Positions 9,143 through 42,236 of a stretch of DNA of 64,000 nucleotides are shown piece by piece. The position numbers and the translations under genes are program-made. Source of the stretch: Phycisphaerae bacterium (lineage in GTDB: Bacteria; Planctomycetota; Phycisphaerae; UBA1845; Fen-1342); NCBI GenBank assembly GCA_030428945.1, contig JAUIEC010000001.1, positions 156,438-220,437 on the forward strand. Reading direction: 5' to 3'. Positions within the stretch are counted from its first letter, which is position 1; every line of letters starts with the position of its first letter. The notes under the pieces were generated by a model, which was not told the DNA's origin, did not search any database, and saw only the letters and a list, made by a program, of their open reading frames with translations.

Positions 9143-9399
9143 TGCGGCAACTCCCTCGCGGACAGCAGGATGCTGACAGATTGGTCCCCCGGAACCACCT
9201 GATCCTAGTCGCCGAAACGAGGCGGCAGCAAGCGGAAAAGGGGCGCGGGAGACAGGGGCCCGGTCGGCGGCGCCATCCCGCGGACCTGGCCCCGCCCGAG
9301 GCGTACCGGGACCGGGACCAGCCGCCTGGATCCGTGCCGGGTCGATCTTCTCGGACCCCCGGCGGGGTGCGAGGCGGCGGCGCCGATCGATCCCGGCGT

Positions 9400-11508
9400 T
9401 CAGTCGTGGTCCGGTAACGTCCGGGGCCAGTAGCGGAGGTCGCCGCTGTCGTTCGAGCGGTCGTAGTCCAGTCCGCCGTCGTCCAGCATGTCGGGACCGG
9501 CCGAGTAGAGCGAAAAGCCGTCGCCTTCGAGCCGGTAGATCATCGGCTGGTTGGTGAAGGGATCGATCAGGTCCACGGCCTCGCCCAGTTCGTCGAGCGA
9601 CTGCGGCAGTTCCCCGACGGCCTGCTCGTACGCGCGAATCCGGGCGACGGCCCGGGCGGCCCGGCGGTTGGCCTCGCCGCGGGTGTACAGCATGCTGGCG
9701 CGGGTCAGCGACGGCGCCAGCACTCCGAGCACCGGGTTGGTCAGTCGCGTCGTCTGCAGTTCTTCCTCGATCGCCTGGAACATGGCGTGCGACGCCGGGT
9801 AGTCGGCCGTCGCCGCGAGCGTCATCTGGTCGTAGAAGTCGTCCGCGCCGTCGCGGATCTTCTCGAAGCCCTGCGCGCTGAGCGCCATGCCGACCGCGAA
9901 CATGCCCGCGTCCGGGCCCGAATCGCCGGCCAGCGAGGCGACGTTCGCGAACTCCCGCAGTCCGCCCGGTGCCAGCCGGTAGCCGTCGTACTCGTCGTGC
10001 TCGTACAGGCGCTGGATCTCGTCCATCATCGCCGCCCGCTCGAACTGGATCGTCTGCGAGAACGGGCGCATCGGCACCTGGTAATCGTCGTACTGCGCGA
10101 ACTGGGCGACGTAGTCGATCTGACCGTCGACATCCTTCGCGTACAGATCCAGCAGCGCATCGGTGGCCAGGTGTTCGACGGCCACGCCGACCAGTCCCTC
10201 GATCAGGGTCGTGCCGCGGCCGGTCTGTCCGCCGCTGCGGAGGGTCATCAGGTACTCGCGCGAGGCGGCCTCGTAGTCGCCGGCGACTTCCTGCTGCTTG
10301 CCGAGAATGACCTGGGCCCGGGCCAGGTTGCGAATCTTGCTGAGCGTCGGCAGCAGCACGCCGATCAGCCGCGTGTCCTCCGGATCGCCGGTCCGCAGGT
10401 CGTAGCCGGTGAAGTCATGCATGCCGGCTTCGCGCAGCAGGGCGATGCCATCGACGTTCCGGTCCAGCCAGCTCAGGATGTCCGGGTCCGCCAGTGTCTG
10501 CGGGTTCCCGGCCATCGCTTCGGCGAAGAAGTCCGGATCCATGTCGAATTCCGGCGTGGCTTCGGCCGCCTGTTCAAACAGGTCGGCCGCCGTGCCGGCG
10601 TTCGTGTGCGTGTTCATCCAGTCGATGTAGTTGACCCAGTCGCCCGGCCGGGGGTCCGGCAGGTCATCGACGGGGCGCGGCAGTTCGCGCAGCGCCGCGT
10701 CGGGGCTCGGGCTGTCGAGCCAGTTGAGGACCCGCCACGCCCAGGAGCGCTCGGGCGGGTCGGCCTGGTTCGGATCTTCCGGGTCGGAATCGGCCATCCG
10801 CATGTCGAGCATGGCCGGAGGGCCGTTCGGATCACCGCCGGCCAGCAGCGCGGCCAGTTGCTCGGACATTTCGCTGGCGCTGAGCATCTCCATCAGCGTC
10901 AGCAGCGGGTCCTTCGGATCGGCCTGCATCTCGGTCGCCGGCGTGACGAGTTCGCGGGTTGCCGGTCCGTGGCTCTCGATCAGTTCCAGCCGCTCCAGGT
11001 CCACGCGAATCTCGCGCCCGTTCTCCAGCACGATGACGAAGTGCGGCGCGTGGGCGTCGAAGCCGACCTGCCTGGCGCCGTGCCGCCAGTCGAGCGATTC
11101 GCCGCGGCGCTCGACGTTCAGCAGTTCACCCGGGTCGAGCAGTTCGTCGAGGGCCCATTCGCGTCCGGGCTCGCCGTCTTCGAGGTAGACCACCAGCGTG
11201 TGGGCCGCACCGCCCATCCGGTACTCGTCGAGCGTGACCACCCACCGGCCGCTGTCGTGGACGAACGCCGCCAGCGGGGCGATCTCGTTGACCAGTTCGA
11301 CCTCCCACTTCGTCTCGGGCCGTTTGCCGCGGGCGCGGTACTGAAGCGTGGCCCGGCACGCTGTTCCGGTTGTCTCGCCGCCGCGACCCGGCGTGACCCG
11401 CAGGCGGTACTCCTTGCTGGCCGAGTAGGCCTGGCGCACCGGGGCGGCGTCGGGTCCCTGGGTGACAAGCAGCGCAGCGGCACACAACAGAACGGCGAAG
11501 GTTGGCAT
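9400..11508 (-). CDS. Secreted hypothetical protein (~700 aa)
   Basis: GGAG located 9 nt upstream of the ATG of MPTFAVLLCAAALLVTQG (signal peptide). The ORF track start at 11556 is probably too far 5'. No confident domain. The C-terminal DPFTNQPMIYR..GFSLYSAGPDMLDDGG is reminiscent of a GspG-type pseudopilin C-terminus (weak). Confidence 0.6.
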   Translation of the reverse strand: MPTFAVLLCAAALLVTQGPDAAPVRQAYSASKEYRLRVTPGRGGETTGTACRATLQYRARGKRPETKWEVELVNEIAPLAAFVHDSGRWVVTLDEYRMGGAAHTLVVYLEDGEPGREWALDELLDPGELLNVERRGESLDWRHGARQVGFDAHAPHFVIVLENGREIRVDLERLELIESHGPATRELVTPATEMQADPKDPLLTLMEMLSASEMSEQLAALLAGGDPNGPPAMLDMRMADSDPEDPNQADPPERSWAWRVLNWLDSPSPDAALRELPRPVDDLPDPRPGDWVNYIDWMNTHTNAGTAADLFEQAAEATPEFDMDPDFFAEAMAGNPQTLADPDILSWLDRNVDGIALLREAGMHDFTGYDLRTGDPEDTRLIGVLLPTLSKIRNLARAQVILGKQQEVAGDYEAASREYLMTLRSGGQTGRGTTLIEGLVGVAVEHLATDALLDLYAKDVDGQIDYVAQFAQYDDYQVPMRPFSQTIQFERAAMMDEIQRLYEHDEYDGYRLAPGGLREFANVASLAGDSGPDAGMFAVGMALSAQGFEKIRDGADDFYDQMTLAATADYPASHAMFQAIEEELQTTRLTNPVLGVLAPSLTRASMLYTRGEANRRAARAVARIRAYEQAVGELPQSLDELGEAVDLIDPFTNQPMIYRLEGDGFSLYSAGPDMLDDGGLDYDRSNDSGDLRYWPRTLPDHD

Positions 11509-14922: not shown

Positions 14923-15054
14923 CGCGCAGCAGGCAAGTGAGCAGGTAAGCAGGGTCGGGGGGCGCGGCCTCTTCCCGGCCTGGCTCCTTCGCTCCCTGAT
15001 CCCCGGCTCCCTTCCCGGGCTATAGTACTTCCGGCGAAACAACGGAGAACGCAC

Positions 15055-20370: not shown

Positions 20371-22932
20371 TCACTCTTTCGCTGCGCCGGCTGGTTTGTG
20401 CAGGGCCTGCCAGCGGGCGTGCTGCGCTGGCTGGTCGGTGGCCTGATAGAGGTCGACCAGGCCGCCGATGCCGCGCTGGGTGTAGGGGTGCTCGTCGCCG
20501 ACCTGGTCGCGGAGAGTTTTGACGCCGGTCAGCAGCAGCGGTTCGGCCTCGGCGGGGCGGCCGACGGTCAGCAGGGCGGTTCCGAGCCGGCACTGGTAGT
20601 CGCCGAGGCGCCAGTGGTTTTCGGGCAGTGATTCGGTCGCGCCGGCCAGGGCTTCGGTGAAGTGTTCGAGGGCCAGTTCGGTTTCGCCGCGGGCCAGCAG
20701 GATTTCGCCGACGAGGCTGAGCGTCAGCATGGTTTCCTCGTGGGAGAGGCCGAGGTCGGCCCGGCGGGCGGCGAGGGTCTGGCGGGCGAGGGTCTCGGCC
20801 TCATCCAGTTCGCGGACCAGCAGCAGGCTGGACGCGAGGTTGTGTCGGCTGGTCAGGGTGTCCGGGTGGTTCTCGCCGAGGACCCGTTCGCGGATTTCGA
20901 GCAGGGAGCGCATCAGCGCGATCGCTTCGTCCTGTCGGCCGAGGTTCTTCAGCACGAGTGCCAGGTTGTTGCGGACGCTGAGCGTGTGCGGGTGTTCGTC
21001 GCCGAAGCGTTCGGCCAGGCCGGCCTCGGTCTGTCGCAGCAGCGGTTCGGCCTCGGCGGACTTGCCGATTTCCCACAGCAGCAGCGCCAGGCTGTTGCGG
21101 GTTCCGAGTGTCAGCAGGGCGTCGGGCTGGGTTTCCTCGAGGCCGGCCAGGGTTTCGCGCAGCAGGGCCTCGGCTTCGTCAAGTCTGCCGAGCGACTGCA
21201 GCAGGTTGCCGAGGCTGCTGCGGGCGGCGCGGGTGTTGCGGTGGTTCGGGCCGAGCAGTCGCTGGCGGATGGTCAGCAGGCGGCGTTTCCAGTACTCGGC
21301 GTCGTTCAGCTTGCCGCGCTGCTGCAGGGCGCTGGCGTAGTTGTTCATCGTGATCTGGGTGTGGTCGTGGTCCTCGCCGAGCACCTCGACCCGCGTGTCG
21401 AGCGCCTGGCGGAGCGTCTCTTCGGCCTGTTCCAGCTTGCCGAGTCCGAGGAACGCGGTGCCGAGGGTGTGCTGCAGGCCCGCCCGGATCTCGGGGTTTT
21501 CGGCGAACTCGGTCTCGGCATGCGGGGCGGCCCAGGTCAGCATCTCCGAGATCCGCACATCGCCGCCTTCGCCCTGCGTCGGGTCGGCCGAGGCGAGGAT
21601 CTTCCGCAGGAACTCGTTGATCGCCGTGACCTTCTCGGCCTCTTCCTCGGCCAGCGTCTGTGCCCGGCGGGTTTCCTGGAGGCGCGTGTCGGCCAGGTCG
21701 AGGGCCTCGATCGCCCGGTTGCGGTCCGCGTCGGCCTGGCGGCGGAGCGTTTCCGCCTGGCGGTAGAGGACGCCCATCCATGCGCCGAACGCGAGCACCA
21801 GGCCGAACAGCACGCCGGCGGCCGCGAAGGGGGCCTTGTGACGGGCGACCAGTTTCCGCAACTGGTAGCCGAAGGTGTGCGGTGTGGCGAGGATCGGTTC
21901 GTTGCCGAGGTAGCGTTCGATGTCCTCGTTCATGGCGGCCGCGCTCTGGTAGCGGCGGGCGGGGTCTTTCTCGATCGCCTTGAGGATGATCGCTTCGAGG
22001 TCGGCGTCGATGCGCGGGTTGAGGGTGCGGGGGCGGACGGGGTCCTGTTCGCAGATGACGCGGAGGGCGTCGAGCAGTTGCGTGCGGTCGACTTCGTAGG
22101 GCAGCCGCAGCGTGAGCAGTTGGAAGAGGATGATGCCGAGGGCGTAGACGTCGGTCCGCAGGTCGATCTCGTCGGGGTTGCCGCGGGCCTGCTCGGGGCT
22201 CATGTAGTGCAGGGTGCCCTGGATCCGGCCGACCTCGGTGACGATGGTGTGTTCGTCGCGTTCGTCGTCGGTGATCCGGGACAGGCCGAAGTCGAGGATC
22301 TTGGGGTTTCCGGTCGGGGTGACGATGATGTTGGACGGTTTCAGGTCGCGGTGGATCACGCCGCGCTGATGGGCGTAGTGGACGGCGTCGCAGATCCGGC
22401 GGAAGAGGTCGAGGCGGGCCTGCAGGGTCGGTTCGCCCCGGGCGGCGAAGCGCCCGAGCTGGACGCCCTCGACCAGTTCCATCACGAAGTACTGCAGGTT
22501 GCTGTCGCTGCCGTCCGCGGCGTGGATCGCGGCGATCGCGGGGTGCTTCAGGCGGGCGAGGGCCTCGGCCTCGCGCTGAAAGAGGCGCAGGTGGTACTCG
22601 TCGAGCGTGCGGCCGTGGAAGACCTTGACGGCCACGCGTCGGCGGGGCTGTTCCTGTTCGGCCTCGTAGACGATGCCGCTGCCGCCGCGTCCGATTTCGC
22701 GGAGGACGCGGTAGCCGGCCAGGTGCGGAATGGCCTGGGCGGGTGCGGTGCGGACGGCGGGTTCGGCCAGTCGGGCGATGCTGCCGCTGACCTGGAGGTT
22801 GGCGGAGACGTCGTCGAACTGCTGGCGGCAGTCGGGGCAGGCGTCGAGGTGGCTGCGGAGCTGGAGCGAGAGCGACTCGGTCAGGTCTTCGCAGGCGAGG
22901 GCCTCAAGTTGTTCGAGGTCCGGACACGGCAC
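20371..22932 (-). CDS. Ser/Thr protein kinase with an N-terminal zf-HC2 anti-sigma-like zinc finger, a TM segment and a C-terminal TPR array
   Basis: HLDACPDC (H-x3-C-x2-C). Kinase subdomains GxGxxG (GRGGSG), VAVK, HRDLKPSN, DFG, SPE. Hydrophobic helix about aa 380-400. More than 8 TPR-like repeats. Confidence 0.9.
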   Translation of the reverse strand: MPCPDLEQLEALACEDLTESLSLQLRSHLDACPDCRQQFDDVSANLQVSGSIARLAEPAVRTAPAQAIPHLAGYRVLREIGRGGSGIVYEAEQEQPRRRVAVKVFHGRTLDEYHLRLFQREAEALARLKHPAIAAIHAADGSDSNLQYFVMELVEGVQLGRFAARGEPTLQARLDLFRRICDAVHYAHQRGVIHRDLKPSNIIVTPTGNPKILDFGLSRITDDERDEHTIVTEVGRIQGTLHYMSPEQARGNPDEIDLRTDVYALGIILFQLLTLRLPYEVDRTQLLDALRVICEQDPVRPRTLNPRIDADLEAIILKAIEKDPARRYQSAAAMNEDIERYLGNEPILATPHTFGYQLRKLVARHKAPFAAAGVLFGLVLAFGAWMGVLYRQAETLRRQADADRNRAIEALDLADTRLQETRRAQTLAEEEAEKVTAINEFLRKILASADPTQGEGGDVRISEMLTWAAPHAETEFAENPEIRAGLQHTLGTAFLGLGKLEQAEETLRQALDTRVEVLGEDHDHTQITMNNYASALQQRGKLNDAEYWKRRLLTIRQRLLGPNHRNTRAARSSLGNLLQSLGRLDEAEALLRETLAGLEETQPDALLTLGTRNSLALLLWEIGKSAEAEPLLRQTEAGLAERFGDEHPHTLSVRNNLALVLKNLGRQDEAIALMRSLLEIRERVLGENHPDTLTSRHNLASSLLLVRELDEAETLARQTLAARRADLGLSHEETMLTLSLVGEILLARGETELALEHFTEALAGATESLPENHWRLGDYQCRLGTALLTVGRPAEAEPLLLTGVKTLRDQVGDEHPYTQRGIGGLVDLYQATDQPAQHARWQALHKPAGAAKE

Positions 22933-22942: not shown

Positions 22943-23542
22943 TCACAGGGCGATCACTTCCATGTCGGTCTGCAGTTGCCGCACGCGTTTCAGCACGCGG
23001 TGCTTGGCGGTATAGACGGCGGCCCGCGACATGCCGAGCTGATCGGCGGCCTGGTCGGCGGTGTGTCCTTCGCAGACGGTCAGGGCGAAGGCCGCGTAGG
23101 TCTGGGCGTTGACCTCGGTCTGCACGCGGGTCAGGCAGCGGTTCAGCAGGTTCCGCTGCCACTCCTCGTCGAAGCAGCGGGTCGCCTCCTGCTCGTCCGG
23201 CAGCGAGGCCCAGAAGGCGGTGTCCGCGCTGACCTGCTGGTCGTTGCCGCTGCGGCGTCGCCGGCGGCGCAGATTGAGCGCCTTGCGGTAGGCGATGCCG
23301 AACAGCCAGGAGCTCAGGCGGCCTTTCTCGCGCTCGTACTTGCCGCGGCGGAGGGCCTCGGCGAAGTCGAGCAGCGTCTCCTGGGCGCAGTCCTCGGCCT
23401 CGGCCTCGGTCAGGCCGATCCGGCGGGCAAAGCGCACCAGCGGGTCCTGGAACCGTCCGGTAAAGCGGTTCCAGGCTTCCTGGTTGGTGAACTCGCGCAG
23501 GCCGAGCAACAGCGTCGAACTGGTAACCCACTCGTTGGTCAA
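22943..23542 (-). CDS. ECF-type sigma-70 family RNA polymerase sigma factor
   Basis: Region 2-like FARRIGLTEAEAEDCAQETLL and a region 4 HTH (LGMSRAAVYTAKHRVLKRV). About 200 aa. Co-directional with, and 10 bp from, the kinase gene. Confidence 0.85.
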   Translation of the reverse strand: MTNEWVTSSTLLLGLREFTNQEAWNRFTGRFQDPLVRFARRIGLTEAEAEDCAQETLLDFAEALRRGKYEREKGRLSSWLFGIAYRKALNLRRRRRRSGNDQQVSADTAFWASLPDEQEATRCFDEEWQRNLLNRCLTRVQTEVNAQTYAAFALTVCEGHTADQAADQLGMSRAAVYTAKHRVLKRVRQLQTDMEVIAL

Positions 23543-23701
23543 GACTTGATGCCACCTCCCTGCCCGAGAGTATAGGAGCCTCGAGCCGTTTCCCTCAAAC
23601 GCGGCCCTCCCCTGACACGCTCAGGCTGCCGCCCGCGGACCGAAAAAACCGATAAAAAAATTAGCGTGTAAGACGTTCCGAAGCGCCGGCCAATACCGGG
23701 T
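23543..23701. promoter_or_regulatory. Divergent intergenic region between the ECF sigma gene and vgrG; locally AT-rich
   Basis: gaccgaaaaaaccgataaaaaaattagcgtgtaagacg is strikingly AT-rich for this genome. No properly spaced ECF -35/-10 consensus is recognisable. Confidence 0.4.
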
Positions 23702-26056
23702 GTGACGCCGATTGTCGGCGGGAGGATGCCAATGCCGTCAGCGAGTCGCCCCGCCAACCAGGCCGACTTCACCTTCGAGATCGATCAGCCGGACACGCCC
23801 GCGCTGCGGGTGACCGGCTTCCGCGGCCAGGCCGCGCTGAGCACGCTGTTCCACGTGCAGGTCGACCTGGCGTCGGATGAACCGGCGCTCGACAAGGCCG
23901 CGCTGCTCGGGCAGGCCTGCCGGCTGACGCTCCGGTCGCCGCGCGGCGATCGGTTCATCTCGGGCATCGTCCGCGCGCTGGCCCGCACCGGGCAGGGGTC
24001 GCGGGTGACGCACTACGCGGCCGAGATCGTGCCGGTGCACTGGTACCTGACCCGCCGGCAGCAGTCGCGGATTCTGCAGAGTCACCTCTGCACGGACATG
24101 AGTGTCCCGGGCGTGATCCAGCACGTGCTGGAAAAGGCCGGCATTCCGGACACGCACTTCCGCTTCGCGTTGCAGGGCACCTATCCGCAGCGTGAGTGCG
24201 TCGTGCAGTACCGCGAGACGGACATGAACTTCATCGCGCGGCTGATGGAGATCGAAGGCCTGCACTTCTTCTTCGAGCACGAGGCGGACCGGCATGTGCT
24301 GGTGATCGCCGACGGCGACGTCGCGCACGTGCCGGGCGAGGGGATCGAGGAGATCGCCTTTCGCGCGCCGACCGGCCTGGTGCCGGCCGAGACCTGCGCG
24401 TTCGAACTGGAGGATCGGCGGGCGATCGAGGTCGACGCGGTTTCGCTGGACGATTTCGACTTCAAGAATCCGGCCCAGCAGTTGCGGGCCCGGCTGGAAG
24501 GTCCGGACGCGCCGGCCCTCGAGACGGTCGACTATCCCGGCTGCTACGTGACCCGCGGCGATGGCGAGCGCTACGCCCGCGTGCGACTGGAGGCCGAGCA
24601 GGTCGGGCGGCACGTCGTCCGCCTGCGGGCCAATGTCCGCGGGCTGCGCCCGGGCTCGACCTTTCACCTGGTCGATCATCCGGCCGCCGAGTGCAACCGC
24701 GAGTACCTGGTGATCGCGGCCGAGGAGCAGGCCGCCCAGCCACAGAGCGTGACGAACGAGGCGGGCGCGGCCGAGGCCCCGCAGTACCGGGTGCTGCTGA
24801 CGCTGATTCCGGTGGAGGTGCCGTACCGGGCGCCGCTGGACACGCCGGTCCCGCGGGTGGCGGGCAGCCAGACGGCGCTGGTGGTCGGTCCGCCGGGCGA
24901 GGAGATCTGGCCGGACGAGTACGGACGGGTCAAGGTGCAGTTCCACTGGGACCAGGCCGGGACGTACAACGAGGAGAGTTCGGCCTGGATCCGGGTCAGC
25001 CAGGGGTGGGCCGGCGGGCGTTACGGGATGTTCTTCCTGCCGCGGGTCGGGCAGGAGGTGGTGGTCGATTTCCTGGAGGCGAACCCGGATCGGCCGCTGA
25101 TCACGGGCAGCGTCTACAACAAGGACAACATGCCGCCGGTGCAGTTGCCGGAGGACAAGACCTGCAGCACGATCAAGTCGCGCAGCACGGTCGGCGGGGG
25201 CGGGGCGAACGAACTGCGGTTCGACGATCGCAAGGACGAGGAACTGCTGTTCCTGCACGCCCAGAAGAACCTTCACCTGCGGGCGCTGAACGACGCGATC
25301 GAGACGATCGGGGCGAACCGGCACTCGCACGTGTCGGGCGACGTGATCAGCGAGGTCTCGAAGAACGTCTCGACCGCGATCGAACTGGATCGCTGCGAGC
25401 AGATCGGCGGGAACGCCTCGCTGTCGATCACGGGTGACCAGATCGAGGTGGTGTCCGGCAATCAATCGGTCGATGTCGGCGGCGGGCAGACCTTGACCTG
25501 CGGCGGCACGGTCGTGGTCGAATCGAGCACGGGCATCACGCTGAAGGTCGGCGGCAACTTCCTGACGATCGACCCGAGCGGGATCTACCTGATGGGTACG
25601 GTCGTGCACGTCAACGGCGCCGGCGCGGCTCTGAACGGCACGTCGCTCGAAGCGCTCGAGACCGGCGAGGCGGCCGTGGCGGCCACGACCGAGCCGGGCA
25701 CGGACGTCACCTACCAGGCCGATCCGGATACGCCGGGACAGATCGAGGCGACGCTGCAGCAGGTCGCCGACGCGGACGAGGACCAGGCCGAAGACGAGGC
25801 GAGCTGGGTCGAGATCGAACTGGTGGACCAGAACGGGCTGCCGGTGGCCGGCGAGGCCTGGGAACTGATTTCGCCGAGCGGGAAGACCTACAGCGGCAGC
25901 CTGGACGCCAACGGCCGGTCGCACGTGGCCGTCGATCAGCCGGGGACCTGCCAGGTCAGCTTCCCGCGACTCGACCGGCGGGCCTGGTCGCGGACAGGCG
26001 GAGAGCAGGCGGCCGCGACGGCCGCGGGTGGCGCGACGCAGGAGGGCTCGGCATGA
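23702..26056 (+). CDS. vgrG: Type VI secretion system spike protein VgrG
   Basis: gp5 OB-fold hallmark RVGQEVVVDFLEANPDRPLITGSVYN. gp27-like N-terminal domain and a beta-helical repeat region (GNASLSITGDQIEVVSGNQSVDVGGGQ...). About 90-aa C-terminal extension after an acidic linker. The start may be M9 or M11 (23726 or 23732). Confidence 0.9.
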   Translation: MTPIVGGRMPMPSASRPANQADFTFEIDQPDTPALRVTGFRGQAALSTLFHVQVDLASDEPALDKAALLGQACRLTLRSPRGDRFISGIVRALARTGQGSRVTHYAAEIVPVHWYLTRRQQSRILQSHLCTDMSVPGVIQHVLEKAGIPDTHFRFALQGTYPQRECVVQYRETDMNFIARLMEIEGLHFFFEHEADRHVLVIADGDVAHVPGEGIEEIAFRAPTGLVPAETCAFELEDRRAIEVDAVSLDDFDFKNPAQQLRARLEGPDAPALETVDYPGCYVTRGDGERYARVRLEAEQVGRHVVRLRANVRGLRPGSTFHLVDHPAAECNREYLVIAAEEQAAQPQSVTNEAGAAEAPQYRVLLTLIPVEVPYRAPLDTPVPRVAGSQTALVVGPPGEEIWPDEYGRVKVQFHWDQAGTYNEESSAWIRVSQGWAGGRYGMFFLPRVGQEVVVDFLEANPDRPLITGSVYNKDNMPPVQLPEDKTCSTIKSRSTVGGGGANELRFDDRKDEELLFLHAQKNLHLRALNDAIETIGANRHSHVSGDVISEVSKNVSTAIELDRCEQIGGNASLSITGDQIEVVSGNQSVDVGGGQTLTCGGTVVVESSTGITLKVGGNFLTIDPSGIYLMGTVVHVNGAGAALNGTSLEALETGEAAVAATTEPGTDVTYQADPDTPGQIEATLQQVADADEDQAEDEASWVEIELVDQNGLPVAGEAWELISPSGKTYSGSLDANGRSHVAVDQPGTCQVSFPRLDRRAWSRTGGEQAAATAAGGATQEGSA

Positions 26057-26955
26057 GCAACCCGACCGACGATTCGTTTTCCGTGCGACTGAGCCAGGCG
26101 GCGGGGGGCGGGCAGGCGCCGGCCGATCCGCGGGAGGAGATTGGCGAACTGCCGAACCGCAGGTCGACGGAGCCGGCTGCGCAGCCGCAGGAGGCCGCGT
26201 TCAATCCGCTGGACTCGTTCGCGGCCCGGCTGGAGTCGCACCTGGACCAGGCGGCGCCGCAGCAGCAGGAACCGGCGGCGCCGCGCGTCGCGCCGGACGC
26301 GGTGATCCGGGCCGAGGCGTGCGGGGCCGGTGCGCACGAGGTGGCCCGCGGCGCGTGCCTGGCGGGGATCGCGCGGCAGGTCGGGCACGACTGGGAGACG
26401 ATCTGGAACGACCCGGCCAACGCGCCGGTGCGCGAGGCGCGTCAGGACCCGAACCTGCTGCTGGCGGGTGACCGGCTGCACATTCCGCCGCAGGAGGCCA
26501 AGCAGGAGTCGGTGGCGACGGAGGCCCGGCATCGGTTCGTGCTGCACAGCGCGCCGGTGCGGCTGGTGCTGCAGTTGAAGGACGAGGCCGGCAAGCCGCG
26601 GGCGAACCTGGCGTACACGCTGGAGGTCGACGGTGCGGCGCGGGAGGGCTTCACCGATCCGAGCGGGACGCTGCGCGAGTTCGTGCCGGCCGAAGCCCGC
26701 GAGGCGCTGCTGACGCTGACGGAATCGGGCGAGGCCTATCCGTTGCGGCTGGGGGCCCTGCAGACGGCCGAGGCGTGTGGCGGCGTGCAGGCGCGGCTGA
26801 ACAACCTGGGTTTCCACTGTGGTCCGCCGAGCGGGCAGTGGGACGAGCGGACGCGGCTGGCGCTGAAGGCATTCCAGGGTCGCGAGGGCCTGCCGGCGCA
26901 CGGAGAACTGGACGAGGCGACGCTGCAGCGCCTGCGGGCGACGCACAGGAGTTAG
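26053..26955 (+). CDS. LysM-like plus peptidoglycan-binding (PGBD_1-like) domain protein, no signal peptide
   Basis: LysM-like HEVARGACLAGIARQVGHDWETIWNDPAN...LLLAGDRLHIP. PG-binding-like GVQARLNNLGFHCGPPSGQWDERTRLALKAFQGREGLPAHGELDEATLQRL. ATGA overlap with the vgrG stop. Confidence 0.7.
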   Translation: MSNPTDDSFSVRLSQAAGGGQAPADPREEIGELPNRRSTEPAAQPQEAAFNPLDSFAARLESHLDQAAPQQQEPAAPRVAPDAVIRAEACGAGAHEVARGACLAGIARQVGHDWETIWNDPANAPVREARQDPNLLLAGDRLHIPPQEAKQESVATEARHRFVLHSAPVRLVLQLKDEAGKPRANLAYTLEVDGAAREGFTDPSGTLREFVPAEAREALLTLTESGEAYPLRLGALQTAEACGGVQARLNNLGFHCGPPSGQWDERTRLALKAFQGREGLPAHGELDEATLQRLRATHRS

Positions 26956-27014
26956 TGAGCAGGTAAGCGGGTAGGCAGGTGTGCTGCGGGGCCTTTTCGG
27001 GCGTTGGATTGGAG

Positions 27015-28028
27015 ATGGCGGTGTCAACGACGACTTCGAGTGATGCGATCTTTGCGGACTGGATGCAGAAGGCGCTGACGTTTCCGGATCCGGGGCATGG
27101 TCACCGGCACAAGCCGATCAACATCTCGTGCTGGATCGCGCTGCATGCCGAGCAACTGGTGGTGACGGTGCACACGGTCTGTTACTCGCAGTATTTCAAC
27201 GACACGCATCGCCAGGGCTGGACCAGCGGGATCAAGTCGTGCTGGGACGGCGAGTTCCTGATCGAGGCCGACGCGACGCCGGGCGGCGGGCACGATGTGC
27301 CGCTGTCGGTGCCGGGCACCGAGACGCCGGCCGTGCTGCGGCCGCAGACCTGGCAGGTTCCGATCGTGTTCGATCCGCGGTTCTACAAGAGCGGCGATCC
27401 GAATGCGCCGGCCAACGCCGACTGTTCGCCGCCGATTCATCGGATCGTCGACCCGGCCGTCGAGCGCGGTGACACGAACAACTGGTGGGGCAAGGACAGG
27501 AATCCGCAGGACACGATGGGGCACATGGCCGCCCACGAGTTCGGGCATTACATCGGCTGCGGGGACGAGTACGGGCTGCACGAGGCGGCCTTCCAGAGCG
27601 TGGTCGGTCGGGCGCCGCGTCCGGACGAGCGGATGGTCGGCAAGGACGGCGTCCCGAACGGGCTGTACAGCACGCACGACAGCATCATGGGGTTGTACAC
27701 GGATCAGTTTCCGAAGCGGCGGCACGCCGAGATGATCGTGGACTGGCTGAACGAGACATACGTGCCGCGGCAGAGCCTGGTCGAGCGCTTCATCCTGCGG
27801 ACCTATGACGAACTGGGCGGGGATCCGATCGGGGAGAACGACTGGTCGTGGTACACGGTCCAGGAGGGCGAGTGGCTGTCGCACATCGCCGAGCGGCACG
27901 GCTACACCTGGGATCAGCTCTACAACTACGACCCGGTCGGCGGCGAGCCGAACCGCATGCTGCTGAGCAGCGGCGACCCGAACCTGATCTATCCCGGCGA
28001 ACAGATTCGCGTTCCGAACGGAGGCTGA
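27015..28028 (+). CDS. HExxH zinc metallopeptidase-like protein with a C-terminal LysM domain (candidate T6SS effector)
   Basis: HEFGHYIGCGDEYG (HExxH plus a downstream acidic GDEY). C-terminal LysM YTVQEGEWLSHIAERHGYTWDQLYNYD...GDPNLIYPGEQIRVP. No signal peptide. GGAG located before the ATG at 27015. Confidence 0.7.
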   Translation: MAVSTTTSSDAIFADWMQKALTFPDPGHGHRHKPINISCWIALHAEQLVVTVHTVCYSQYFNDTHRQGWTSGIKSCWDGEFLIEADATPGGGHDVPLSVPGTETPAVLRPQTWQVPIVFDPRFYKSGDPNAPANADCSPPIHRIVDPAVERGDTNNWWGKDRNPQDTMGHMAAHEFGHYIGCGDEYGLHEAAFQSVVGRAPRPDERMVGKDGVPNGLYSTHDSIMGLYTDQFPKRRHAEMIVDWLNETYVPRQSLVERFILRTYDELGGDPIGENDWSWYTVQEGEWLSHIAERHGYTWDQLYNYDPVGGEPNRMLLSSGDPNLIYPGEQIRVPNGG

Positions 28029-28030
28029 AC

Positions 28031-28858
28031 GTGCCGGCTGCCGCCCGCGTACTGGACACGACTTCGCACGGTACACCGCTGATGCCCGGACCCGGCAGCA
28101 GTGACGTGCTGATCGGCATGCTGCCGGCCTGGCGGGCGCTGCCGGCGGGAGTCGGCGCGGGGCTCGAATCGGCCTCGTCGCAGATGCAGTCGCTGATGTC
28201 GTCGCCGAGCCTGACGCCCGTGGATGCGACCGCCACGCTGGTGCAGGTGCAGACCGGGCTGGCGCAGTCGGCGGCGGCGGCCACCGCGGACGGAAACATG
28301 TCGGCCCTGCCGAGCACGGCCTCGGCGATGGTCAGCCTGAACGCGACCAACGCGGCGCTGACGGCCACCTACCTGGCGGCCGCGGCGGTGCCGGGCGGCG
28401 CGGCGGCCGCGGGCGTGGCGTATGCGCAGGGTCTGCAGGCGGCGGCCGCGGCAACCGTCGGGGCGGCGTTCCAGGCGATCGCGGGGACGACCGACCTGCA
28501 CAACTGTCCGATTCCCTGTCCGATCCCGCCGCACGGACCGGGGGTGGTGACGCAGGCGAGCACGAGCGTGTTCGTCAACAACCTGCCGGCCGTGCGGCAG
28601 GCGGACAACGTGGTCGAGGCCTGCGGCGGTTCGAACGCGATCGCGATGGGGGCGCCGACCGTGTTCATCGGGGACCAGGGCGGCAGCAGTTCGCCGGCGG
28701 GGCAGAGCGGGTCCTCGGTGACGGGGGCGGTGGCGAGTTTCGTGGCGACGGTCGCGGACGTGATCGCGGCGGCGACGGTGATCATGCAGAACGAGGCGGC
28801 GGCGACGAGCGGTGCGGCGTTGTGCGAGGTCTGCGACGATTCGGGGGCGGGCACATGA
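28031..28858 (+). CDS. PAAR-domain protein with an Ala/Ser-rich insertion
   Basis: GTG start gives MPAAARVLDTTSHGTPLMPGPGSSDVLIGMLPAWRA (PAAR motif 1). The C-terminal HNCPIPCPIPPHG...NLPAVRQADNVVEACGGSNAIAMGAPTVFIG is PAAR motif 2. GGAGG RBS located 5 nt upstream inside the preceding gene. Confidence 0.8.
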   Translation: MPAAARVLDTTSHGTPLMPGPGSSDVLIGMLPAWRALPAGVGAGLESASSQMQSLMSSPSLTPVDATATLVQVQTGLAQSAAAATADGNMSALPSTASAMVSLNATNAALTATYLAAAAVPGGAAAAGVAYAQGLQAAAAATVGAAFQAIAGTTDLHNCPIPCPIPPHGPGVVTQASTSVFVNNLPAVRQADNVVEACGGSNAIAMGAPTVFIGDQGGSSSPAGQSGSSVTGAVASFVATVADVIAAATVIMQNEAAATSGAALCEVCDDSGAGT

Positions 28859-29241
28859 AGCCGGTGTTCACGCTGCGCGACGCGCACCTGGAGGCGTTTG
28901 CCGCGGCGGCGCGGGAGAGCTTCGAGGATCGCATGCTGGCGCACGTCCGCCTGGCGTTTCGCGCGCGGCATGACGAACTGGGCGCGGTCGAGTCCCGCCG
29001 CTGGGTCCGCAGCGGGATCGAGCGGGCGGCCGACTACGGGATCACGGTCGAACGGGACGTCAGTCGCTTCATCCGGCTGATGTTTCAACTGGGTGAGAAC
29101 TTCGACCGCGGGCAGGCCCGGGCGATGCTGGCGCGGCGCGACGTGCCGGCCGCGCTGCGGTTGAACCGGGTGCTGACGATGGCGGTCAGTTCGGGGGCCC
29201 TGCCGGCCGGGACGGTGCGGGCGGTGGAGGCGGAGTCGTGA
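28855..29241 (+). CDS. Hypothetical 128-aa cytoplasmic protein in the vgrG operon
   Basis: ACATGA stop/start overlap with the PAAR gene. Coding-like bias. No signal peptide or recognisable motif. Confidence 0.55.
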   Translation: MKPVFTLRDAHLEAFAAAARESFEDRMLAHVRLAFRARHDELGAVESRRWVRSGIERAADYGITVERDVSRFIRLMFQLGENFDRGQARAMLARRDVPAALRLNRVLTMAVSSGALPAGTVRAVEAES

Positions 29242-30425
29242 GGCTGACAAAGCTGACGCTGCACTACCTGCTCTGCGTGCAGTCGCAGGAGGGGGCGACG
29301 GTCGGGGGCATCAACGTGTCGGATGACGAGATCCGGCTGGAGCTGGGCAGCCTGGTGGTTGCGCGGGCGAACATGCTGCCGGGTCAGACGCTGACCGACT
29401 TCAGCCAGAGCGTGTTCGAGTTCGAGCACGCCCCGGAGTTCCGGCTGTACGAGGAGGACGTCGAGTACGTCGGGGACGGCGACGACCTGCTGGGGGCCTG
29501 GACGGTCGAGACGGTCAAGGGCGTGCACGTGGCGCACTTCGCGCAGAGCGGGGCCTACTACATGCTGCAGTACGAGGTCGAGCCGCCGCCGGATCCGACC
29601 AGCCCCTCGGAGCGGTGCGGCGCGCCGCCGGGCGAGACGCTCGCGTACGTGACCTGCGGGCACGACGTGCCGGAGTCGCAGCGGTTCGACGAGTACCGCG
29701 AGATCATCGAATCGCTCGGGGTGTTCCTTGAGGACGGCTACAACCTGATCGGGCTGCGGTGCCTGGACTACGAGACGCGCGAGATCGTCGAGAACACCTG
29801 GAACGCCTGGAACGACACGCTGGCGGTCGTCTGGCTGGACGCGGCCGGGACCAAGCGGGTGGTCGAGTACCAGGGCACCTGCGATCCGGGCAAGCACTCC
29901 AAGACCGCGCACGAGGATGGCGAGGATGCCAATCCGAACGGGCTGGCGCACCTCTGTGACGGGCAGTGGGAGTACGAGTGCGGCTATCACCACGGCAGCT
30001 ATCCGTGCCTGGTGCAGAAAGAGGACGTGACGGTCTGGCGGAGCCAGTTCGGCGATGACGGCTGGGCGAACAACACCTTCGAGGAAGGCGAGCAGACCGA
30101 CACGGGCATCTTCGGGATCAACATTCACGCCTCGAAGGACAACTCGTCGGGCGTCTACAACTGGTCGGCCGGCTGCCAGGTGTTCCGCAGTTCGAAGGGC
30201 GCGGGCACGCGTTACGCCGAGGTGATGGGCTCGGGGACCAAGGGCGATTCCGAGCACGGCGGATACGTCGGCGAGCATTTCGAGACGCACGACGTGATCT
30301 ACTACACGGTCGTGACGGCCCGGGAGAAGGGCACCGAAGAGGACAACGTGCCGTGCGCGTGCGAGGCCGGGGACGGTGAGGTCGGGGCCGGGAGCGTGGC
30401 GTGTCCACAGGAGGGTGCCTCGTGA
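29238..30425 (+). CDS. Hypothetical 395-aa protein with a YkuD (L,D-transpeptidase fold)-like Cys/His motif (candidate effector)
   Basis: GTGA overlap with the preceding gene. The segment GIFGINIHAS...GVYNWSAGCQVFRS resembles the YkuD HG...SHGCIR active-site region. No signal peptide. Confidence 0.5.
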   Translation: MRLTKLTLHYLLCVQSQEGATVGGINVSDDEIRLELGSLVVARANMLPGQTLTDFSQSVFEFEHAPEFRLYEEDVEYVGDGDDLLGAWTVETVKGVHVAHFAQSGAYYMLQYEVEPPPDPTSPSERCGAPPGETLAYVTCGHDVPESQRFDEYREIIESLGVFLEDGYNLIGLRCLDYETREIVENTWNAWNDTLAVVWLDAAGTKRVVEYQGTCDPGKHSKTAHEDGEDANPNGLAHLCDGQWEYECGYHHGSYPCLVQKEDVTVWRSQFGDDGWANNTFEEGEQTDTGIFGINIHASKDNSSGVYNWSAGCQVFRSSKGAGTRYAEVMGSGTKGDSEHGGYVGEHFETHDVIYYTVVTAREKGTEEDNVPCACEAGDGEVGAGSVACPQEGAS

Positions 30426-30955
30426 TTGCCGAGCGCGTGCTCGAGCCGCTGCAGCGGGGGCTGCGGGCCGGTGACCAGGCGGGGCTGCACTGGTACGCGG
30501 TGGTCGACGCCGCGCAGCCGCTGGATGCGATCCGGCGGGTGCGGGTGGCGCGGCGCAAGAACCGGACGCTGTACCAGGGACGGCTCGGGGCCCTGGCACA
30601 CGCGGCGGCGCCGTACCTGGTGGAACTGGACCTGCAGGACAACCTGACGGCCTGGCTGCTGGCGCACGGGAGCCAGCACTGGGGGATCCTGCTGCAGTCA
30701 TCGGCCGACTTCGAGACGGTTCGACAGCACCTGCGGCGGTTCCTGGTGGTCAGCGATCCGGAGGGTCGTCGGCAGCGGTTCCGGTTCTACGATCCGCGGA
30801 TCCTGCGTGCGTTCCTGCCGGTCTGCACGGGCGAAGAGGCGGCCAGGTTCTTCGGTCCGGTCAAGCGGTACTACGCGGTGGGGCGCGACCTGCTCGACTG
30901 GGAGCGCTTCTCGGCCGTCTCGCGCGGCGTGCATCGGGAGCAGGTAAGCAGGTAA
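30401..30955 (+). CDS. DUF4123-like protein (T6SS effector adaptor Tap/Tec family)
   Basis: LHWYAVVDAAQPLDAIRRV...RTLYQGRLGALAHAAAPYLVELD matches the DUF4123 LYALxDGA...L(Y/F)xG...APxLV pattern. An alternative GTG start at 30422 overlaps the upstream stop. The last codons and the TAA stop are supplied by the heptamer tract. Confidence 0.55.
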   Translation: MSTGGCLVIAERVLEPLQRGLRAGDQAGLHWYAVVDAAQPLDAIRRVRVARRKNRTLYQGRLGALAHAAAPYLVELDLQDNLTAWLLAHGSQHWGILLQSSADFETVRQHLRRFLVVSDPEGRRQRFRFYDPRILRAFLPVCTGEEAARFFGPVKRYYAVGRDLLDWERFSAVSRGVHREQVSR

Positions 30956-30996
30956 GCAGGTGAGCACGTAAGCACGTAGGCAAGCAGCAAGTGACC
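30939..30996 (+). repeat. GCAAGTRA-type heptamer tract (family A) overlapping the end of the DUF4123 gene
   Basis: gagcaggtaagcaggtaagcaggtgagcacgtaagcacgtaggcaagcagcaagtga. Confidence 0.8.
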
Positions 30997-39537: not shown

Positions 39538-39702
39538 CGGTGCTCCGTGCTCCTGTCGGCGGGGCGGCGAACCGGCGACTATAGCGGCCGGGACCGCCGC
39601 GGGCGAAGGGGTGGCCGCGATGGAATCCGGAATCCTCTTGGCGGTCGACGGCTGCCCGACCTACGATGAAACGGCATATTCTCTGTTTCAGCGAGGGCAT
39701 TC

Positions 39703-41391
39703 ATGTTTCGCGTTATCGGCATTCCTGTCGCGCTACTGTTGTGCGCGAGCACCGGCCCGGCCCAGACATTCAGCGAGGTCAGCGGCCTGCGTGGCGTGGA
39801 TTACCTGGTGGAGGTCACCACCTCGTACGGATCCGGCGTGCTGCTGGCCGACCTGGACGGCGATGACGACCTCGACATGGTCGCGCTCGGGGACCTGGGC
39901 GGGCCCGGCCTGTTCGAGAACGTGGGCAATGCGTTCTTCGTCGAGCATCCGTCGATTCCGCTCGCGTCCGGGGCGGCCGGGATTGCATCGGCGCTGAGTG
40001 CGGCCGACTACGACGGGGACGGCGACCGCGACCTGCTGATCACGGTCTGGGAGGGTCCGAACAGCCTGTTCCGCAATGACGGCAATTTCACGTTCACCGA
40101 TGTTTCGGCGGTGGCGGGGCTGGACGATGACGGGATCGGGATGGGCAGCACCTGGGGCGACTACGACGGCGACGGCTGGCTGGACCTGTACGTCAGCAAC
40201 CGTTCGGGGACGACGCTGTCGGGTGGCGGCCAGGACTTCCAGCCGAACCGCCTGTACCGCAACCTCGGGGACGGCACGTTCGAGGAGCGGGCGGTGCTGG
40301 AGACGGTTGACGCGGGGATCGCTCCGACGCTGCAGGCGACGTTCGTCGATCTGGATCGCGACGGTGACGTCGAACTGTACCTGGCGAACGACAAGGGTTC
40401 GTACTCGAACTGCATGTCGTGGCGGAACCAGTTGTGGGACAACCAGAACGGCAGCCTGGTCGAGATCTCGTCGACGTCGGGCACCGACGTCTGCGTCGAT
40501 TCGATGACGATCACGCTCGGCGACGTCAACCAGGACGGGCTGCTGGACATCTACACGACCAACACGCCCGAAGGGAACGCCCTGATGGTGCAGGATCCGA
40601 ACGGGCACTTCCGCGAGGTGGCCGGCGCATACGGCGTGCTGGTCAATCAGCTCAGTTGGGGCGCGGTGTTGATCGACTACGACCTGGACCAGGATCAGGA
40701 CCTGTATGTCTGCAACGCGACCAGCTTCAACATGATGTTCCGCAACGAGCCGACGCTGCCCTGGCCGCAGGTGGCCTTCGCGCTCGGGCTGGCCGACATC
40801 AGTGTCTCGTACTGCGTGGCCCAGGGTGACCTGGACGACGACGGTGACGTCGACATGATTCTCTCGAGCGACGACACGCGCCTGAAGGTGCTGATCAACA
40901 ACGCGGCGACGGGCAACTCGCTGCAGGTCCGCCCGATCGGTGCCTGGCCGAACTACGACGCGATCGGCGCGACGATCCTGGTCGAGGCGGGCGGCGTCAC
41001 GCAGGTCCGTGCGGTTGCGGCCGGGAGTGCGTACAAGTCGCAGCACGAACTGCGGCAGACCTACGGGCTCGGCGGCCACACCAGCGCGGACCGGATCGAG
41101 ATCATCTGGCCGGGCGGTGAGATGCGGGAACTGTTCGACTACCCGGCCGGCAGTTGGCTGGCGATTCCGGACGGTCTGCTGGGCGACTTCAACCGGGACG
41201 GTATTCTGAATCACCGCGATGCGCGGCGGCTGAAGGGCTGCCTGTCGGCGGCGACGTTCGAGCCGGGCTGCGAGTGTTTCGACTTCGACGGCGACGCGGA
41301 CGTGGACGTGCTGGACGCGATCGAGTTCGGCCTGCGGCGCGGCGGTGCGACGAGGGTTCCGGCCGCGTCGGGCGGCGGGGTGATTCCGTAA
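39703..41391 (+). CDS. FG-GAP repeat / ASPIC-UnbV (CRTAC1-like) secreted protein with a dockerin-like C-terminus (third paralog)
   Basis: DLDGDDDLD, DYDGDGDRDL, GDYDGDGWLDLYV and the UnbV-like VRAVAAGSAYKSQHE. C-terminal GDFNRDGILNHRDARRLKGCL and FDGDADVDVLD. Signal peptide. Confidence 0.8.
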   Translation: MFRVIGIPVALLLCASTGPAQTFSEVSGLRGVDYLVEVTTSYGSGVLLADLDGDDDLDMVALGDLGGPGLFENVGNAFFVEHPSIPLASGAAGIASALSAADYDGDGDRDLLITVWEGPNSLFRNDGNFTFTDVSAVAGLDDDGIGMGSTWGDYDGDGWLDLYVSNRSGTTLSGGGQDFQPNRLYRNLGDGTFEERAVLETVDAGIAPTLQATFVDLDRDGDVELYLANDKGSYSNCMSWRNQLWDNQNGSLVEISSTSGTDVCVDSMTITLGDVNQDGLLDIYTTNTPEGNALMVQDPNGHFREVAGAYGVLVNQLSWGAVLIDYDLDQDQDLYVCNATSFNMMFRNEPTLPWPQVAFALGLADISVSYCVAQGDLDDDGDVDMILSSDDTRLKVLINNAATGNSLQVRPIGAWPNYDAIGATILVEAGGVTQVRAVAAGSAYKSQHELRQTYGLGGHTSADRIEIIWPGGEMRELFDYPAGSWLAIPDGLLGDFNRDGILNHRDARRLKGCLSAATFEPGCECFDFDGDADVDVLDAIEFGLRRGGATRVPAASGGGVIP

Positions 41392-41436
41392 GCAAGTCAG
41401 CAAGTGAGCAAGTAAGCAAGTAAGCACGTGAGCGCG
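41389..41436 (+). repeat. GCAAGTRA heptamer tract (family A); the gene's TAA stop is part of the first unit
   Basis: gtaagcaagtcagcaagtgagcaagtaagcaagtaagcacgtgagc. Confidence 0.8.
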
Positions 41437-41459: not shown

Positions 41460-42041
41460 TTGGGACTGTCCCTGACGGATTCGCGGGGCGTGCGGGTGGC
41501 GAACTTCGTTTACATCGGCGTGAGTCTGGACGGTTATATCGCGGATCGGGACGGGGGGCTGGACTGGCTGGACCGTGTGCCGGTTCCGGAGGGCGAGGAC
41601 CTCGGCTGGGCCGGGTTCTACGGGCGGATCGACGCCCTGCTGATGGGGCGGGTGACGTTCGAGACCGTCTGCGGGTTCGATGTGGACTGGCCGTATGACA
41701 AGCCCGTCTTCGTGCTGAGCGGGACGATGACGACGGTGCCCGACGCGTACCGGCAGCGGGCCGAGGTTGTCGGCGGGCCGTTGCCCGAGATCGTCGCGGC
41801 TCTGCGCGGGCGCGGGTTCGGCAACCTGTACATCGACGGTGGCGCGACGATCCGGTCCTTCCTGCGAGCCGACCTGATCGACGAACTGATCCTGACGCGG
41901 ATCCCGGTCCTGCTGGGCGGGGGTGTTCCGCTGTTCGGAGAACTCGCCCGGCCGATGGCGCTGGAGCATGTCGACACGCGGGTCCACGCGGGGGCGATTG
42001 TTCAGAGTCACTATCGGCGCGGTGAGCAAGTGAGCAGGTGA
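41460..42041 (+). CDS. Dihydrofolate reductase-like (RibD C-terminal domain / YwjB family) protein
   Basis: VYIGVSLDGYIADRDGGLDW and GRVTFE are typical of RibD_C/DHFR-like reductases. The last codons GEQVSR and the stop come from a heptamer tract. Confidence 0.75.
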   Translation: MGLSLTDSRGVRVANFVYIGVSLDGYIADRDGGLDWLDRVPVPEGEDLGWAGFYGRIDALLMGRVTFETVCGFDVDWPYDKPVFVLSGTMTTVPDAYRQRAEVVGGPLPEIVAALRGRGFGNLYIDGGATIRSFLRADLIDELILTRIPVLLGGGVPLFGELARPMALEHVDTRVHAGAIVQSHYRRGEQVSR

Positions 42042-42043
42042 GC

Positions 42044-42236
42044 CGAATGCAGTCCCCCACCCTGCGCTCGCTGGCGCTCGCTAGAGGGTGGGGCACCCGG
42101 GCAAGCAAGTCAGCAAGTGAACAAGTGAGCAAGTAAGCAGGTGAGTCGAATGCAGTCCCCCACCCTGCGCTTGCTGGCGATCGCTGAAGGGTGGGGCACC
42201 CGGGGCTGACGCTCGCTAAAGGGTGGGGCACCCGGG
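42044..42236. repeat. Two-and-a-half tandem hairpin units CCCACCCT-N22-AGGGTGGG + GCACCCGG (family F), interleaved with a GCAAGTRA tract
   Basis: gaatgcagtcccccaccctgcgct(c/t)gctggcg(c/a)tcgct(a/g)(g/a)agggtggggcacccgg at 42044-42100 and 42148-42205, with a partial third at 42206-42236. The region lies between convergent genes. Confidence 0.8.

Follow-up and report, generated by a model that had tools for sequence, protein, structure and literature searches.

A probable auxiliary vgrG spike/effector module of the type VI secretion system in a Phycisphaerae planctomycete

A run of seven genes headed by vgrG lies on the forward strand (23732-30955) of the window, the whole 64,000-nucleotide stretch of contig JAUIEC010000001.1 (Phycisphaerae bacterium, assembly GCA_030428945.1) that was analyzed. 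The locus is very probably an auxiliary ("orphan") spike/effector module of a canonical type VI secretion system (T6SS-i) in a Phycisphaerae planctomycete, encoded away from the T6SS core genes. It encodes a VgrG spike, an accessory protein with LysM-like and PG_binding_1 domains (gene 2), a putative metzincin-like peptidase (gene 3), a PAAR tip protein (gene 4), a small helical protein (gene 5), a putative effector with a Cys/His domain (gene 6) and a DUF4123 adaptor (gene 7) (Table 1). In the mechanism proposed here, a trimer of VgrG with the PAAR protein as its cap would form the spike tip, and gene 2, as a lineage-typical loading factor, would bridge the C-terminal region of VgrG and the gene 3 product, which has a LysM domain of its own. 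The DUF4123 adaptor, probably aided by gene 5, would load the gene 6 product onto the spike. A T6SS encoded elsewhere would fire the loaded spike into neighboring bacteria, where the enzymes encoded by genes 3 and 6 would most likely attack the target cell wall.

Table 1. Positions in the window of the vgrG operon, its divergent neighbors and the associated octamer repeat tracts
Feature	Position	Strand	Evidence
Gene 1, VgrG/TssI spike, 774 aa	23732..26056	+	Pfam, TIGR03361, PDB match
Gene 2, accessory protein, 300 aa	26053..26955	+	Pfam, AF2 model, family linkage to vgrG
Gene 3, putative effector, metzincin-like zinc peptidase with C-terminal LysM, 337 aa	27015..28028	+	Motifs; LysM 9.7e-6
Gene 4, PAAR tip protein, 275 aa	28031..28858	+	PAAR_motif 1.1e-9; phrog_281 8.4e-9
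Gene 5, helical protein, 128 aa	28855..29241	+	Relatives by local jackhmmer
Gene 6, putative effector, 395 aa	29238..30425	+	phrog_3000 match
Gene 7, DUF4123 T6SS adaptor, 177 aa	30422..30955	+	PF13503 1e-29
Ser/Thr protein kinase with C-terminal TPR array	20371..22932	-	Pkinase 3.3e-43, TPR_12 5.9e-59
ECF-type sigma factor, divergent from vgrG	22943..23542	-	Sigma70_r2 4.3e-11, Sigma70_r4_2
Divergent intergenic (promoter) region	23543..23731	.	A-rich stretch and GTGTAAGA motif at 23666-23673
Three octamer copies (AGCRGGTR) in the gap between genes 2 and 3	26958..26981	+	Sequence
Octamer tandem repeat (AGCAGGTA, ~6 copies) across the stop codon of gene 7	30939..30986	+	Tandem Repeats Finder (TRF)

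The vgrG operon and its relatives

The spike protein is a VgrG (TssI) of the T6SS-i type. From N- to C-terminus it presents a gp27-like region, an OB-fold, a gp5 beta-helix, an acidic linker and a predicted beta domain of ~65 aa, and it matches Phage_GPD (2.8e-75), Phage_base_V and Gp5_trimer_C in Pfam. The gp27-like, OB and gp5 beta-helix architecture is found together with scores above the curated cutoffs, at 559.1 bits against TIGR03361 (cutoff 186.35) and 427.6 bits against TIGR01646 (cutoff 121.8). In a sequence search of the PDB, residues 17-619 match Pseudomonas aeruginosa VgrG1 (E 5.6e-122), whereas the spikes Afp8 and Pvc8 of extracellular contractile injection systems (eCIS) match at ~1e-5 and on the OB-fold only. 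Translation is more likely to start at ATG 23732 than at GTG 23702, which would give a 784-aa product. The C-terminal extension past the beta-helix measures ~145-185 aa and not ~90 aa, the length given in an earlier note on this DNA. In the closest related locus, here called L002, the orthologous VgrG (3906-6776) is an 'evolved' VgrG of 956 aa, in which the same small C-terminal beta domain is followed by a CHAP domain; the window VgrG has no enzymatic domain. The CHAP domain in L002 suggests that modules of this lineage are used against bacteria, to degrade their walls.

The calls of VgrG, PAAR, DUF4123, PG_binding_1 and LysM that had been made from the sequence alone are all upheld by profile searches. 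Gene 4 reaches 38.8 bits against PF05488 (cutoff 27) within the vgrG locus, and its score of only 19.9 against T6SS_PAAR_dom in NCBIfam (cutoff 124) is explained by a long insertion: the protein is unusually long, with an Ala/Thr-rich insertion of ~130 aa between the PAAR motifs and a variable C-terminal tail of ~60 aa. Identity over the N-terminal 215 aa is 48-62% in the related loci L002, L005-L008, L010, L091 and L146. Gene 7 reaches 103.6 bits against PF13503 (cutoff 25.8) in the same operon as vgrG and a putative effector. Against the Tla1 model it scores 44 bits, under the 200-bit equivalog cutoff, and is thus not a Tla1 equivalog.

The seven open reading frames (ORFs) lie on one strand, are all intact and show the codon usage of genuine genes, with a high third-position GC content. 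Genes called independently on a 12.7-kb Logan contig of identical sequence have products of the lengths listed in Table 1. The seven-gene orphan vgrG operon described in the earlier note is real. The gene junctions are, in order, ATGA, a 59-nt gap (23 nt if gene 3 starts at GTG 26979), a 2-nt gap, ATGA, GTGA and GTGA, and the ATGA and GTGA junctions, four of the six, are overlaps of 4 nt. No internal promoter or terminator is predicted within the operon. The overlapping start and stop codons favor the proposal of a single operon; the octamer repeat tract in the wider gap that separates genes 2 and 3 is a caveat. A simple hydropathy scan confirmed that an N-terminal signal-like or transmembrane segment is absent from all seven products. 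The sole hydrophobic segment in that scan is a helix near the C-terminus of the PAAR protein, in its variable tail (Kyte-Doolittle maximum 2.09 at residue 234).

No T6SS core gene accompanies the operon in the window, as had been claimed. Pfam scans of ~40 other coding ORFs, which cover most of the 64 kb, found no TssA-M, Hcp or ClpV and no sheath, tube or baseplate gene. The window was also searched by tblastn with Hcp, TssA/B/C/E/F/G/H/K/L/M, TagF and TagH of a Caballeronia cluster, which served as the core-gene query set (an Azospirillum plasmid locus without most core genes was passed over), and no match was obtained.

The module type is linked to T6SS core genes in other genomes. A scan of GTDB representatives, with one genome per species, yielded 80 related VgrG loci, the best match being 54% identical. 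A core gene (TssB/C/E/F/G/H or Hcp) lies within 10 kb of vgrG in 63 of the 74 non-planctomycetal relatives. Among metagenome contigs, L091 and L146 have the order ClpV, VgrG (49-50% identity over its C-terminal half), gene-2-like genes and PAAR (56-61% identity), and L146 additionally carries TssC. The gene order in L090 is TssF-TssG-ClpV-VgrG-PAAR-DUF2169-gene-2-like, and in L087 it is ClpV, VgrG, a 126-aa gene and a gene-2-like gene. In three further loci (L096, L160 and L162), vgrG and a gene-2-like gene occur together with TssC/E/F/G/H, to which L096 adds TssB, and contigs of Sedimentisphaerales, a group within Phycisphaerae, carry ClpV and VgrG followed by gene-2-like genes.

Conservation of the module itself is seen in L002, a contig labelled Phycisphaerae_DSPM01. 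Its gene order is TPR kinase, divergent extracytoplasmic function (ECF) sigma factor, VgrG, gene 2, gene 3, PAAR, gene 5, gene 6 and DUF4123, so that the comparison with related genomes called for in the earlier note finds the whole module kept along with the sigma/kinase pair. The proteins are 43-61% identical to those of the window, gene for gene, and a module that remains syntenic at this divergence is therefore under selection.

Several observations weigh against the assignment to an auxiliary T6SS module. The T6SS core of the source genome is assumed, the DNA examined being the 64-kb window, which has none. A core gene within 10 kb of vgrG is found in none of the eight closest planctomycetal loci (the window, L002 and L005-L010, the latter from Phycisphaerae/Planctomycetota metagenome-assembled genomes), so detachment of this vgrG type seems to be usual in the lineage. 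Neither gene 3 nor gene 6 is placed in an enzymatic family at a curated threshold, and the AlphaFold2 (AF2) model of the gene 6 product has a pLDDT of 49. No immunity gene is evident in the operon, which is atypical for antibacterial wall-degrading effectors; the earlier remark that a recognizable periplasmic immunity gene is missing thus stands. Finally, the repeat in the gap that separates genes 2 and 3 is an octamer tract of the kind that mostly comes after the ends of genes, so that the operon may be transcribed as more than one unit.

The missing core genes, in the 64 kb and near the eight closest loci alike, would also fit a lineage devoid of the T6SS machine, in which the VgrG module is a remnant in decay or acts independently through another export route, and ~8% of small tssI clusters do occur in genomes without T6SS-i (PMC4793230). 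Such an origin is nevertheless highly unlikely. All seven ORFs are intact, start and stop codons overlap at most junctions, and the genes are conserved one for one in L002. Relatives of gene 2, of PAAR and of the C-terminal half of VgrG together adjoin ClpV in L091 and L146 and TssC in the latter, the gene 2 family occurs in main clusters (L090, L096, L160 and L162), ClpV-VgrG is seen in contigs of Sedimentisphaerales, and T6SS-positive Planctomycetota are listed in surveys. Least probable of all, and largely refuted, is the spike of an eCIS or phage-tail-like particle: eCIS and P2-like baseplates do have the trio of LysM protein, VgrG-like spike and PAAR tip, and T6SS structural sets are without a LysM protein (PMC10673891), but the window spike is of the long gp27-gp5 T6SS type and not the short Afp8/Pvc8 type, matches T6SS spikes over ~600 residues, passes TIGR03361 and is encoded with a member of the DUF4123 T6SS adaptor family, no sheath, tube or baseplate gene adjoins it in the window, and its relatives are flanked by TssB/C/ClpV/Hcp.

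The preferred reading, an auxiliary T6SS module, has known counterparts. In Vibrio cholerae, vgrG-tap-1(DUF4123)-tseL is an auxiliary T6SS cluster. The window module resembles this cluster and the satellite vgrG modules of PMC4793230 in having vgrG off the core together with PAAR, DUF4123 and cargo genes that are translationally coupled. It differs from them in its Phycisphaerae host, in having no recognizable immunity gene, in its two putative loading systems (the LysM/PG_binding_1 protein, and DUF4123 with gene 5) and in the position of DUF4123 after the presumed effector rather than before it.

The locus is a genuine yet ordinary auxiliary T6SS module in an under-studied class. No T6SS literature was found for Phycisphaerae, and the locus adds a well-delimited T6SS spike/effector module from this class. 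It extends the concept of LysM/PG_binding_1 recruitment to a conserved three-domain accessory family, repeated as cassettes across environmental genomes, and flags two effector candidates, the metzincin-LysM protein and the phrog_3000 Cys/His domain common to phage lysis proteins. The understanding of T6SS is unchanged by it, and its value is that of a catalogue entry and a source of candidate cell-wall enzymes. The novelty first attached to cargo from a lineage whose T6SS cargo is little characterized was overstated, since detached vgrG modules are common, with 35% of T6SS-i replicons carrying one (Abby et al., 2016, PMC4793230), and Planctomycetota are among the T6SS-positive clades in a survey preprint.

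The accessory family of gene 2

The gene 2 product consists of a disordered N-terminus, a LysM-like region (~95-145), a beta-sandwich (~169-232) and a PG_binding_1 domain (242-298; 47.8 bits, cutoff 23), and it has no catalytic domain. For the LysM region, the only evidence comes from the LysM regions of PHROG endolysins and from Pfam LysM matches in other members of the family. In a Foldseek search with the AF2 model, which has a pLDDT of 80 overall and of 89-97 over most of the folded part, per-domain matches were obtained and no fold analogue of the whole protein was found. The idea of a beta-sandwich shared by VgrG and gene 2 is unsupported, the hidden Markov model (HMM) being marginal on the C-terminus of the VgrG in L008 (E 0.007) and missing the window VgrG.

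The protein belongs to a family of 52 clusters at 90% identity with a conserved core of ~210 residues. Named members are few, and all are from Phycisphaerae or Sedimentisphaerales. A scan with an 11-sequence alignment found at least 474 relatives in JGI metagenomes. Among the 37 informative loci, that is, fetched metagenome loci with at least 2.5 kb upstream of the gene 2 relative, vgrG is present in 23 and lies directly upstream in 18. T6SS core genes are present in 10 of the 80 fetched loci of the family. Across loci the gene 2 proteins are 40-50% identical though the next genes are unrelated: these encode proteins with Transglut_core and LysM, Metallophos or Ntox3 domains, a weak DUF5675 match and unknowns. 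BLASTP found no common N-terminal loading domain among the variable effectors downstream of the gene 2 copies. A locus may hold one to four gene-2-like copies, often each with a different following gene. Two to four copies are seen in L006 (12438-19921), L092 (5287-11884), L087 (7220-16341) and L090 (10001-19450), and those in L006, L087 and L090 precede differing large genes (e.g., Transglut_core with LysM, Ntox3, unknowns). Such loci look like arrays of cassettes, each made of an accessory gene and a downstream gene.

In a survey of 130,825 loci, LysM and PG_binding_1 were among six families of recruitment domains of vgrG loci, which occur as stand-alone proteins, fused to the C-terminus of VgrG or fused to the N-termini of toxins (PMC10673891). 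In Ketobacter alkanivorans, co-immunoprecipitation showed that a stand-alone LysM protein is needed for effector-VgrG binding (Commun Biol 2023, PMC10673891). Gene 2, a stand-alone LysM/PG_binding_1 protein encoded directly after vgrG and before an effector gene, is by analogy a probable bridging or loading protein between VgrG and the effector. Its constancy while the downstream genes vary fits a loading factor or adaptor and not an immunity protein or toxin. Because modules of this kind recruit effectors (PMC10673891), domains of the LysM and PG-binding types are unsafe as a sign of a peptidoglycan target.

It is rather unlikely that gene 2, and the LysM and PG-binding domains in general, are instead, as assumed in the earlier note, secreted cargo or co-effectors that anchor to peptidoglycan and not cytoplasmic loading factors. 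Both domains are classical wall-binding domains, the neighboring effectors appear to be wall-directed, and such domains, when fused to VgrG, are necessarily secreted and could have several functions (PMC10673891). Against this reading, gene 2 remains the same as its downstream partner varies, and the protein has no catalytic domain, follows vgrG directly and is present in one copy per downstream cassette in several arrays; the experimental precedent is also for a bridging role (PMC10673891). A bridging role and a secreted role are not mutually exclusive.

Gene 2, here taken as the probable loading factor, resembles the published LysM recruitment proteins (PMC10673891), which were compared by description only, in being a non-toxic LysM protein directly after vgrG and before the effector, and in that the effectors may themselves carry LysM, as gene 3 does. 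It differs in joining LysM, a beta-sandwich and PG_binding_1 in one protein, in the frequent arrangement of its family as tandem cassettes before different genes and in the restriction of named members to Phycisphaerae and Sedimentisphaerales.

Putative effectors, adaptor and helper

Metzincins are recognized by an HExxHxxGxx(H/D) zinc site, a Met-turn and a match to a family profile. The motif HEFGHYIGxxDEYG (HEFGHYIGCGDEYG) and a downstream Met-turn-like SIMG motif are conserved in gene 3 and its orthologue in L002 (43% identical), and no peptidase family was found above threshold in profile searches that included Pfam and NCBIfam. The HExxH and LysM assignments that had been made for this gene are borne out, and the product is a putative metzincin-like peptidase.

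The gene 6 product joins a lineage-specific N-terminal region of ~160 aa to a His/His/Cys domain of ~190 aa (29715-30332), in which H251, H297 and C313 and the motif WSAGCQV are invariant. Residues 164-320 match phrog_3000, a phage family without an assigned function (E 6.8e-27). Nine relatives match the same family at 1e-29 to 1e-37 and the C-terminal part of phrog_33083 'endolysin' at 1e-11 to 1e-18. A full HMMER search found the domain in 4325 representative clusters (E<=1e-3), against 13 hits in a word-index search. The family consists mostly of stand-alone proteins of ~200 aa; Pfam has no model for it, sequence searches detect no relative of solved structure, and its multidomain members give only weak CBM9 and SLT hints in Pfam. 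Among ~165 fetched loci, the domain is present in the window, L002 and L003 only, and it is T6SS cargo in the window and L002. In L003 (7994-12677), a distant protein with this domain (P0012) lies in a non-T6SS setting, its neighbors being a pair of DUF2589 proteins, a SIR2_2-like and a Peptidase_C39_2-like protein; the domain is thus not confined to T6SS.

The earlier note had called gene 6 YkuD-like, for which no support was found. The catalytic motif of YkuD is a His followed, at a spacing of 14-17 residues, by S-x-G-C. The arrangement H297-x15-C313 within IH...WSAGCQV is invariant in the gene 6 family, though it lacks the Arg found after the Cys in YkuD, and such a motif is not diagnostic by itself. 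Gene 6 and 12 relatives gave no match in Pfam or NCBIfam, PDB searches with single-sequence and 61-sequence profiles gave none either, and hhalign against a shallow profile of E. coli LdtA/B/D/DpaA returned a probability of 0.45%. Fold comparison is precluded by the poor quality of the AF2 model, whose Foldseek hits are meaningless. Tlde1 is an L,D-transpeptidase-like (YkuD-fold) T6SS effector family of Salmonella. Gene 6 shares with Tlde1 a His 16 residues before an S-x-G-C motif and a presumed peptidoglycan target. It differs in having the phrog_3000 domain in place of any YkuD profile, PDB or hhalign match, and its operon has no periplasmic Tldi-like immunity gene.

The cargo may still be directed at peptidoglycan: the counts of LysM and PG-binding domains, including those of gene 2, lose their force as signs of such a target, and the endolysin link of gene 6 through phrog_3000 is in its favor. 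A speculative and distinctly unlikely proposal is that a large phage-associated, phrog_3000-like Cys/His family has been recruited in gene 6 as T6SS cargo without a dedicated periplasmic immunity protein. If this were true, the planctomycetal producer would be intrinsically resistant through an unusual envelope or wall chemistry, or the enzyme would cut a bond that is absent from the producer's own wall.

Gene 5 has no match in Pfam, NCBIfam or PHROG, and its PDB matches were to designed helical repeats and were rejected as spurious. A word-index search returned one relative, 82% identical, and local jackhmmer found relatives in L002, L010, L144, L106 and L076. The family lies one or two genes from DUF4123 in four of the six loci, the window counted. 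Because of this usual proximity, gene 5 is a candidate co-chaperone of the DUF4123 adaptor, a role favored over that of an immunity protein.

An immunity function for gene 5, against the gene 6 product or a toxic C-terminal tail of the PAAR protein, is distinctly unlikely. The gene is small, lies between those for PAAR and gene 6 with a 4-nt overlap with both, and is the operon's only immunity candidate, and the PAAR tail does carry a hydrophobic helix. Yet gene 6 is presumed to act on a periplasmic target, whereas the gene 5 product lacks a signal peptide, and its relatives are mostly near DUF4123 and in loci with other effectors (L010, with Het-C and 426-aa proteins; L076, L106 and L144).

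As for the favored co-chaperone role, TecT and co-TecT are pairs of a DUF4123 adaptor and a co-chaperone in P. aeruginosa. The window module is similar in having a DUF4123 adaptor and a small second helper gene in one effector cassette, and it differs in that gene 5 shows no detectable similarity to described families and the pairing is a co-occurrence in only four of the six loci.

Flanking regulators, repeats and window context

The ECF-type sigma factor divergent from vgrG is 59% identical in L002, at the same position, and the kinase beside it is 52% identical and syntenic in L002, a locus of a metagenome-assembled Phycisphaerae genome. The kinase, partner of the adjacent sigma factor, is possibly a local regulator. 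The sigma/kinase pair is syntenic in L002 only, being absent next to the other related vgrG loci, and a regulatory tie to the operon is possible yet unsupported. Upstream of vgrG, ~60 nt before the start, GTGTAAGA follows an A-rich stretch in both the window and L002 (~3846-3853). This motif could be a promoter or a regulator site for the ECF sigma factor next to it. In the divergent intergenic region, a single sigma-70-like site was detected, on the minus strand only.

The repeat tract at the end of the operon had been described as a heptamer tract that bounds an island. TRF gives it a period of 8 with 5.5 copies (30939-30982), and ~10 tracts of this octamer (AGCARGTR), with 3-7 copies per tract, are dispersed across the window, among them 68-123, 5337-5384(-), 14932-14955, 26958-26981, 30939-30986, 41399-41430, 42025-42143, 53982-54076 and 61927-61974. 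The two-unit pattern has 33 matches against 0.05 expected. Since the tracts are dispersed and one of them is inside the operon, the tract at 30939 is not an island boundary. There is likewise no evidence for a mobile island, since no tRNA, integrase or compositional shift was found at the locus. Most tracts begin a few tens of bases past a stop codon and are oriented as the upstream gene. Each unit contains one TAA/TGA-like triplet, so that a tract, with its period of 8, places stops in all three frames. The octamer repeat is absent from L002, L005-L010, L087, L090, L091 and L146 and therefore looks genome-specific.

Elsewhere in the window, three paralogous FG-GAP/ASPIC-UnbV proteins (5388-7250, 7382-10414 and 39670-41391), a PEP-CTERM protein (58895-59626) and a protein with a prepilin-type N-methylation motif (60952-61872) are encoded, and these fit a planctomycetal chromosome.

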